A DNA stretch of 4,883 nucleotides, taken from IMG/VR virus record IMGVR_UViG_2645727555_000008; one strand, written 5' to 3'. Positions 2,999-3,755 of the stretch are shown piece by piece. The first letter of the stretch is position 1; each line of letters starts with the position of its first letter. Position numbers and translations under genes: made by a program. The DNA is from a virus (lineage: Duplodnaviria > Heunggongvirae > Uroviricota > Caudoviricetes). The notes under the pieces are model-generated. The model did no database searches. It saw only the letters and a program-made list of their open reading frames with translations, and was not told the DNA's origin.

Positions 2999-3274
2999 TC
3001 ACTCAAAAGTGCTGATGCTTAAAATACGCTCAAGATGTGCGGCATCTTCATCACTGATTTGTTGAGTCTCTTCTACGTACCAACAGTTGCCGTTATGCCA
3101 ACAAACACCATCATCATCAACCATCACTGAATCAGCGTCATGACCTGTATATTCAACGAGAACACGCTGGATCAGCGCGTCAGTTTCTTCGTCGTTAAGG
3201 CCATCGGCTTTGACCATAAAAAGCGGAAACACGTCATAGACAGTGCTGGTAACGATTCGAACTAAAACTCTCAT
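2999..3274 (-). CDS. Hypothetical 91-aa strongly acidic protein
   Basis: SD AAGGA about 8 nt upstream of ATG; hand count about 19 Asp+Glu vs 5 Lys+Arg, with runs such as DEETD, VDDDG and SDEDAA. Confidence 0.6.
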   Translation of the reverse strand: MRVLVRIVTSTVYDVFPLFMVKADGLNDEETDALIQRVLVEYTGHDADSVMVDDDGVCWHNGNCWYVEETQQISDEDAAHLERILSISTFE

Positions 3275-3329
3275 GTGTTTTTCCTTTTGTGGTTAGTGTT
3301 TACTTATTTTGTTAGTTATGAATAGGCGA

Positions 3330-3755
3330 TCAATCTTCTTGTTTAGGGAAAAACTGTTCAATAACTCTGTCAACGGCTGTGTCTATATGGAGTAGATGCC
3401 ACACAACCATATCTTTGCTTCCCATGCCTTGTGTGAATATCACGTCATACTTACGCCATGCGCAGTGGAACCAATATGCTGAGTCATCAATTGGTAAATC
3501 CTCTCCCGCCTCTTTGAAGTATTTCAGCAACATTGCCTGCTCTGCCGTTGGCGTTGGACCTATTTCCTGAGCGTACATACGGATGAATCGCTGCCAGTCT
3601 GTCTCGTCGGGGGTTGGATCTGGTGGATTCATTTCGGCGATAGCGTTTCGTAGCTGATGCGCCCAATCAGGTTCAGGAAAGCCTTTTGATACTTCATCAT
3701 CAATAACATCCAGAGCCGCGTTTGCAGCATCGTAGAGTTTCTTAATAGCTGTCAT
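3330..3755 (-). CDS. Hypothetical 141-aa acidic protein
   Basis: ORF begins just downstream of the terminator at 3804-3830, so likely its own transcription unit; hand count about 26 Asp+Glu vs 13 Lys+Arg; Pro/Asp-rich segment NPPDPTPDETD. Confidence 0.6.
   Translation of the reverse strand: MTAIKKLYDAANAALDVIDDEVSKGFPEPDWAHQLRNAIAEMNPPDPTPDETDWQRFIRMYAQEIGPTPTAEQAMLLKYFKEAGEDLPIDDSAYWFHCAWRKYDVIFTQGMGSKDMVVWHLLHIDTAVDRVIEQFFPKQED

Follow-up and report, generated by a model that had tools for sequence, protein, structure and literature searches.

Lambda Gam, T7 gp5.9 and P22 Abc2 are nuclease inhibitors encoded within phage recombination modules, small acidic proteins are often immunity proteins, and the P1 C1 operators are dispersed repressor operators that are asymmetric. 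T7 Ocr (gp0.3) is all-helical and elongated, with surface carboxylates imitating bent B-DNA. The two proteins of the present locus, o91 and o141, are like Ocr and ArdA in their small size, acidity and carriage on mobile elements. A preliminary description of the locus had proposed two adjacent, strongly acidic small proteins that could be Ocr/ArdA-like DNA mimics, anti-defence factors or immunity proteins, and overall this interpretation was partly supported by the analysis reported here.

The stretch of DNA that was analysed (4,883 nucleotides, referred to as the window) was strongly supported as the replication region of an SSU5/pHCM2-type phage-plasmid. Positions 88-4795 form an SSU5/pHCM2-like replication region with 98.5-99.3% identity to a block in ~100 complete Escherichia coli and E. 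albertii plasmids (~60-130 kb). The phage records PhiR41_1, CMS-2020a and Cyrano contain this block too, and Salmonella phage SSU5 showed ~75% identity to it. Homologues of o91 and o141 were found in hundreds of plasmid and phage records. The genes on the minus strand are, in order of reading, a small membrane protein gene, an SPFH lipoprotein gene (3847-4677), o141 (3330..3755), o91 (2999..3274), o59 (2780-2959), o111 (2448-2783) and o70 (2236-2448), and a bidirectional terminator-like hairpin (inverted repeat I3, 2204..2227, minus strand) ends the string from o141 to o70 before the iterons. The gene for a Rep3-type initiator (562/442-1656) is on the plus strand. Both o91 and o141 lie between RecA/SPFH and the origin, within the replication-recombination module, and o91 sits in an SSB-exonuclease-RecA...SbcCD block. 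No RNA families were found in the window with Rfam.

The exact limits of both minus-strand ORFs were confirmed, and the earlier hand counts of acidic and basic residues were reproduced exactly. The o91 protein contained 19 Asp+Glu and 5 Lys+Arg (net charge -14, pI 4.15), and o141 contained 26 and 13, respectively (net charge -13, pI 4.52). Both are real genes under strong purifying selection, with pN 0.15 and pS 0.69 (dN/dS ~0.08) for o91 and pN 0.18 and pS 0.95 (saturated) for o141 between the window lineage and SSU5.

The 91-aa protein o91 is an acidic orphan alpha/beta protein with no Pfam family. It matched PHROG 2209 alone and over its full length (residues 1-91 on profile positions 1-91, E=1.1e-56). 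PHROG 2209 is an uncharacterised phage protein family without a function, Pfam family or solved structure, and it was distributed in SSU5-like phage-plasmids of Enterobacterales only. An exhaustive HMM search with the o91 alignment against 1.84 billion representatives gave 16 matches, ~8 of them genuine and full-length, and the remainder were fragments or compositional matches to repeat proteins. The repeat proteins P0038, P0041 and P0047-49 were rejected as relatives, being compositional artefacts of D/G/T-rich repeats, and UFC1 was rejected as the family of o91 on a sub-threshold Pfam score (E 0.057). Single-sequence and profile searches of the PDB with o91 and o141 produced chance matches only (EGF, acyl carrier protein, thioesterase), and the Foldseek matches in BFVD were uncharacterised viral proteins only. 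NCBIfam and PADLOC gave zero matches for either protein, and with the PADLOC HMMs (E <=0.1) defence-system components were absent from o91, o141 and four neighbours.

The AF2 model of o91 was a compact b-b-a-b-b-a fold (pLDDT 87, pTM 0.75), and the most conserved motif, E76 D77 .. H80 L81. R83 I84 L85 .. S88 T89, was located on the C-terminal helix. A total of 49 distinct o91 variants were collected, down to 41% identity. The 47 intact variants had a net charge of -10 to -15 and a pI of 4.05 to 4.4, and the other 2 were disrupted ORFs that fell outside this charge range. Since the intact variants keep their net charge down to 41% identity, the charge of o91 is a conserved property. When the 123 annotated SSU5 proteins were ranked by net charge per residue, the homologue of o91 was the 3rd most acidic and that of o141 the 11th; a pI below 4.6 occurred in 9% of SSU5 proteins. 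The description as strongly acidic thus held for o91, where acidity is also conserved, and was weaker for o141, given its lower rank and a family median pI of 4.8.

The 141-aa protein o141 consists of an N-terminal helical hairpin (~residues 1-48, PHROG 21166) and a DUF7238 domain (~residues 50-138, PHROG 1451), and its AF2 model contained 7 helices (pLDDT 76). Pfam PF23885 matched residues 16-137 (E=6e-38, 129.8 bits against a gathering threshold of 27) and was covered from profile position 2 to 111 of 112. The same domain was found in all but one fragment of the 16 first-round relatives, and RefSeq labels the gene as ‘DUF7238 family protein’. DUF7238 is a family without known function, as is PHROG 1451. 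Compared with the stand-alone members of 88-106 aa, o141 adds the acidic hairpin (~50 aa), which carries -7 of the net -13; many members have no such extension, and the stand-alone domain has a net charge of about -5. Across 45 members the median pI was 4.8 and the net charge ranged from 0 to -14. The DUF7238 family is only mildly acidic, and acidity is no defining trait of it. About 49 clusters at 90% identity were found, all unnamed and nearly all on ~100-kb contigs of Salmonella, E. coli, Cronobacter or Serratia. Only 4 loci (Kluyvera twice, Y. pestis and Buttiauxella) were detected in the representative genomes scanned, so the family is narrow. In the literature search, DUF7238, the accession numbers and the locus tags were not mentioned in any paper.

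The o91 and o141 genes are unrelated, independently distributed accessory genes of the SSU5-type phage-plasmid. Among the 161 loci fetched, DUF7238 preceded o91 in 149 and was absent in 10, and the order o91-(o59)-o111-o70-iterons-rep was found in nearly every SSU5-like locus reaching that far. A conserved two-gene module of o141 and o91 was rejected; the proteins are unrelated (hhalign of the two family alignments, probability <1%) and each occurs alone. Elements that have DUF7238 and no o91 were a lambdoid prophage of Serratia fonticola, with the gene in its early-left operon (N ... GamL-exo ... NinX-DUF7238 ... int), and other ~100-kb Salmonella elements, with the gene in long arrays of small genes. 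No o91 relatives were found among the genes after DUF7238 in the non-SSU5 elements. The adjacency of NinX and DUF7238 was shared by SSU5 and the Serratia lambdoid prophage (L006/L007).

In one ~100-kb Salmonella element (L175/L176, 312-5315), a short DUF7238 gene lies in a long small-gene array that starts with an ADP-ribosylglycohydrolase gene and a Lar restriction-alleviation gene (PF14354). The SPFH-o141 gap (window 3756 to 3846) is an insertion hotspot that varies among lineages. The insertions at this gap were a NinX/DUF2591 gene in SSU5 (L003, 6501-6872), genes for DUF1281_C, NinX, DUF7736, phiTE_015 and DUF7301 in locus L005 (5389-7676), and five unrelated small ORFs in locus L004 (6214-7899).

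An intrinsic terminator (AGGCGTCCAGTTGGACGCCT followed by a T-run, 3830..3811, minus strand) is located between the SPFH stop codon and the o141 start and closes the membrane-protein/SPFH unit. Its hairpin has an 8-bp stem with 6 GC pairs and a loop of 4. SSU5 has this hairpin after its SPFH gene as well, and it is conserved in 4 lineages; the terminator that had been noted before the 141-aa gene was confirmed. Downstream of it lies an 18-bp motif (AAGAAAACAATTTGTTTA, 3771..3788, minus strand) with the palindromic core AAACAA-n-TTGTTT, a candidate operator/early-promoter element for o141-o91. In the DNA alignment, AAGAAAACAAnTTGTTTA was invariant after the SPFH gene in 4 divergent lineages, regardless of the next gene, and the palindrome of the recurrent motif is AAACAAnTTGTTT. 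The motif core was present in SSU5 in 11 exact copies, all intergenic, against 0.006 expected, and the 18-mer gave 23 matches in Cyrano at <=3 mismatches against 0-2 in shuffled genomes. All Cyrano sites at <=1 mismatch were co-oriented with the next gene, and all but one were annotated as intergenic, ending 10-34 nt before the start codon. In Cyrano the motif heads parA, the replicative (dnaB-like) helicase gene, o141, nrdB and a series of small genes. Lineage L004, which is without DUF7238, carried a copy 19 nt before the o91 homologue itself. The motif was absent from the non-SSU5 elements carrying DUF7238, and in the searchable literature it was found in no paper. Candidate regulators of the HTH type in Cyrano are CYRAN_45, the LexA-like CYRAN_98 and CYRAN_114.

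A logo of 20 strong cassettes read ..GCCTTTT..TTGcGATAATaACACCAAy-AAGAAAACAAnTTGTTTA-AGGA..ATG, with the Shine-Dalgarno sequence directly after the motif in most of them. There were ~20 copies per genome in SSU5 (L162/L163) and Cyrano (L170-L172), almost all intergenic and most of them co-oriented, and the whole looks like a genome-wide regulon of SSU5-type phage-plasmids. Read from the sequence, the cassette may be a promoter of the extended -10-like type, with a palindromic operator shortly after the presumed start. The -10 of the window cassette is degenerate; a weak, putative -10-like hexamer, AATTAT (3795..3800, minus strand), stands roughly at the place of the TGnGATAAT-like element, ~2-3 nt nearer the motif, and the SSU5 copy (TATTAT-CACCAAC) is nearer the consensus. 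A Shine-Dalgarno-like AAGGG (3766..3770, minus strand) was read 10 nt before the o141 ATG. The succession of terminator and recurrent motif before o141 supports a dedicated promoter/operator, and the own promoter suggested earlier for this gene is a probable one with regard to the 18-bp motif after the terminator. The terminator scan found none between o141 and o91, so the two genes are probably co-transcribed. On the plus strand, a promoter-like site at 3771-3799 (TAAACA-17-GATAAT) consists of the palindromic motif and the -10-like element in reverse reading; transcription from it would run into the SPFH gene in the antisense direction, and the palindrome itself probably accounts for this call. 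Of the new leads, the recurrent operator cassette is the most concrete.

Expression was taken from published RNA-seq of E. coli LF82 carrying Cyrano (PMC9928086, S1 Table), whose homologues of o141 and o91 are 97-98% identical to the window proteins. In LF82, ciprofloxacin induces Cyrano 39-fold (PMC9928086). The normalised counts in LB were 5.7 for CYRAN_58 (o141 homologue) and 9.3 for CYRAN_59 (o91 homologue), with a Cyrano median of 9.8, while RepA, the repressor-like CYRAN_45 and the LexA-like CYRAN_98 had 133, 96 and 148, respectively (PMC9928086). Over all five conditions the maxima of log2(5+FPKM) were <=4.2 for CYRAN_58 and <=5.7 for CYRAN_59, and both genes are missing from the list of lysogen-expressed ‘morons’ of that study (PMC9928086). 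Most other cassette-headed Cyrano genes were at background (7-25), with parA at 50, and the Cyrano TA genes were expressed in lysogens at 14-60 times background (PMC9928086). The homologues of o91 and o141 behave like repressed lytic/early functions that are silent in the plasmid state, a conclusion with strong support. Because of this silence in the plasmid prophage, they are most likely lytic/early genes and not genes of lysogenic conversion or plasmid maintenance.

Downstream of o91, o59 encodes a small membrane protein (PHROG 2535), o111 a signal-peptide protein (PHROG 2077) and o70 a P1 Cra-like protein (PHROG 804). The scan detected promoter-like sites TTTACA-17-TAGTAT and TTTATA-16-TATCAT in the gap between o91 and o59 (2958..2997, minus strand), the first of which stands at the same place in SSU5, and the element likely serves o59-o111-o70 separately. 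The Cyrano homologues of these three genes (CYRAN_60-62) rose to log2 6.0-9.0 in the MB samples, which were taken as macrophage samples from the column labels (PMC9928086). They were at the floor in LB and rose up to roughly 90-fold in the MB1/MB6 samples of LF82. This suggests that o59-o111-o70, next to the origin, are a unit with regulation of its own that may be induced intracellularly.

Iterons (TATGCTGTCAGCGGT-like, consensus GTATGCTGTCAGCGGT) were present in at least 13 copies at 436-541 and 1652-2188, on both sides of rep. The RefSeq start of Rep at 442 (404 aa) falls within the iteron array upstream. More plausible is the ATG at 562, which gives a protein of 364 aa, in line with the annotations of SSU5 (354 aa) and Cyrano (351 aa). 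Rep showed ~50% identity between the window lineage (562-1656) and Cyrano (L002)/SSU5 (L003), and despite the divergent Rep the Cyrano genes from o70 to o141 were 97-100% identical to the window. The difference between Rep and the adjacent genes indicates an exchange of the replicon/incompatibility module, with a probable recombination boundary between o70 and the iterons. Co-evolution of o91 with Rep was rejected; Rep was swapped while o91 was unchanged.

The ends of the window (1-100 and 4785-4883) form a 99-nt inverted repeat that is 97% complementary and foreign to the phage-plasmid. More than 1,600 plasmids of E. coli and Shigella carry the ~98-bp end repeat, without annotation; the copy in pCP301 is situated ~100 bp downstream from the transposase gene of IS1294 (IS91 family). 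The 4.7-kb replicon fragment thus has an IS1294-type end on each side, in inverted orientation, and these ends truncate an ASCH-domain gene (ORF 82-240) and the gene for the small membrane protein (~4681-4881). The window represents either a mini-replicon captured by an IS or an assembly contig bounded by repeats, and both junctions together occurred in no record of the plasmid and E. coli collections.

The following mechanism is proposed. The o141 and o91 genes are probably co-transcribed from the phage-specific promoter/operator cassette just after the SPFH terminator; both are silent while the element is a plasmid prophage and would be expressed in the lytic/early phase. After infection or induction, the o91 protein would act in stoichiometric amounts on a host protein, occupying the surface with which that protein binds nucleic acids and blocking it by charge mimicry; candidate targets may be a defence or recombination nuclease (RecBCD, a restriction enzyme) or RNA polymerase. 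The o141 protein (DUF7238) would be a helical early protein, as in the early accessory gene arrays of temperate phages. That o91 is a stoichiometric inhibitor occupying the nucleic-acid-binding surface of a host protein is put forward tentatively, at somewhat less than an even chance, because its charge is conserved while its sequence drifts, its fold is small and rigid, and it is sited in a recombination module. In this form, as a candidate charge-mimic inhibitor of a host protein, the earlier suggestion of an anti-defence factor was retained for o91, with PADLOC negative.

The main rival of the o91 inhibitor reading is that o91 and o141 assist the element's own DNA metabolism or the control of its lifestyle, for example as an acidic modulator of the phage SSB, RecA, exonuclease or SbcCD, or by helping the element to change over from iteron-driven replication as a plasmid to lytic replication. 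Their position inside the replication-recombination module, between RecA/SPFH and ori, agrees with such a role, as does the same cassette on parA, the replicative helicase gene and nrdB, and o91 is fixed beside o59-o111-o70-iterons-rep in nearly all SSU5-like loci of sufficient extent, down to 41% identity, while the genes upstream come and go. However, in the plasmid state Rep is expressed and both genes are silent, and DUF7238 occurs in integrating lambdoid prophages that are without this replicon. A specific pairing of o91 with Rep is also unlikely, since Rep was swapped (50% identity) yet o91 and o141 stayed 97-98% identical in Cyrano. This rival is rated as possible and rather doubtful.

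Very unlikely is the reading that the two proteins are DNA mimics of the Ocr/ArdA type that block Type I restriction enzymes. It would fit their small size, the Asp/Glu excess, the conserved acidity of o91 and the mobile-element context, and the DUF7238 member of the Salmonella element lies in the small-gene array ~3.5 kb downstream of the Lar gene. Neither protein, however, had a sequence, profile or structural match to Ocr or ArdA. In hhalign, the family alignments of o91 and o141 gave a probability of <=0.1% against T7 Ocr, and there was no Pfam match to Ocr. In the structure prediction and fold search, Ocr, ArdA, Arn and immunity proteins were all missing from both match lists. The net charge per residue was -0.154 for o91 and -0.092 for o141 against -0.239 for Ocr, and the fold class of o91 differs from that of Ocr. 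ArdA homology or a three-domain DNA-like dimer fold was found for neither protein, and the genomic position also differs from that of Ocr and ArdA, as o91 and o141 are not among the first genes to enter. Neither protein is related to Ocr or ArdA by homology or structure, and the Ocr/ArdA reading is unsupported.

It is equally improbable that o91 is a Gp2/epsilon-like binder of host RNA polymerase that serves transcription takeover or modulation. The small alpha/beta folds of T7 Gp2 and B. subtilis RNAP epsilon (YkzG) scored in the grey zone against o91. The o91 protein is ~30 residues longer and has an extra C-terminal helix with the most conserved motif, and it has no sequence relation to T7 Gp2 (hhalign probability 0.1%). 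Least probable of all, and scarcely credible, is that o91 and o141 are immunity proteins or antitoxins against a neighbouring toxin; the genes immediately downstream include one for a small membrane protein and one for a secreted protein, but these genes probably form a separately regulated unit, no neighbour has a toxin or bacteriocin domain, there was no immunity fold among the structural matches, and neither an adjacent cognate toxin nor constitutive expression in the carrier state was found, both genes being at background where an antitoxin would be expected to be expressed in lysogens like the Cyrano TA genes.

SSU5 contained a second cluster of small, very acidic proteins at 88.0-94.0 kb (L163, 38043-44026), near a repressor-like gene. 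The cluster comprises SSU5_104 (DUF1380), 105, 106, 110-112 and 115, with pI 4.05-4.5, and several of the genes have their own cassette. Judged by composition alone, this second cluster is no worse a candidate for an anti-defence island than o91/o141.

E. coli, Shigella, Salmonella Typhi and Yersinia pestis (in the last on a contig of pMT1 size) commonly harbour phage-plasmids of the SSU5/pHCM2 type, and screens with current models showed almost no anti-defence genes in these elements. As a core, strongly acidic and lysogen-silent orphan, o91 is a reasonable place for the missing counter-defence or nuclease-inhibitor function, and the recurrent cassette is a handle on how ~20 transcription units are quieted in the plasmid state. 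As matters stand, o91 and o141 are a further pair of conserved hypothetical phage proteins. A further-reaching reading, which is considered unlikely, is that o91 represents a new charge-mimic inhibitor family with a fold unlike that of solved DNA mimics, placed in an early regulon under the AAGAAAACAAnTTGTTTA operator and used at infection or induction against a host nuclease or defence system. That such a family would cover the SSU5/pHCM2/pMT1-type phage-plasmids, with targets such as RecBCD or a restriction enzyme, is held to be just as unlikely.

Among the described regulatory systems, the P1 C1 operators and the T4 ‘promoter-early stem-loop’ cassettes are likewise short conserved elements at many intergenic sites before operons. 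The SSU5 element is often preceded by a terminator-like GCCTTTT remnant. However, the SSU5 motif is unrelated in sequence to the P1 and T4 elements, and it is palindromic, unlike the P1 C1 operators. Lambda Gam, T7 gp5.9 and P22 Abc2 are, like o91, small and acidic and encoded beside phage recombination genes; homology to o91 was not detected, the analogy being purely positional, and the SSU5 and Cyrano annotations contained no known RecBCD inhibitor. DUF7238 and PHROGs 1451 and 2209 are already catalogued as uncharacterised families, and a new kind of system or an unusual mechanism is not shown by these results. At most, o91 would add a new family to the small acidic phage inhibitors, a class already known.
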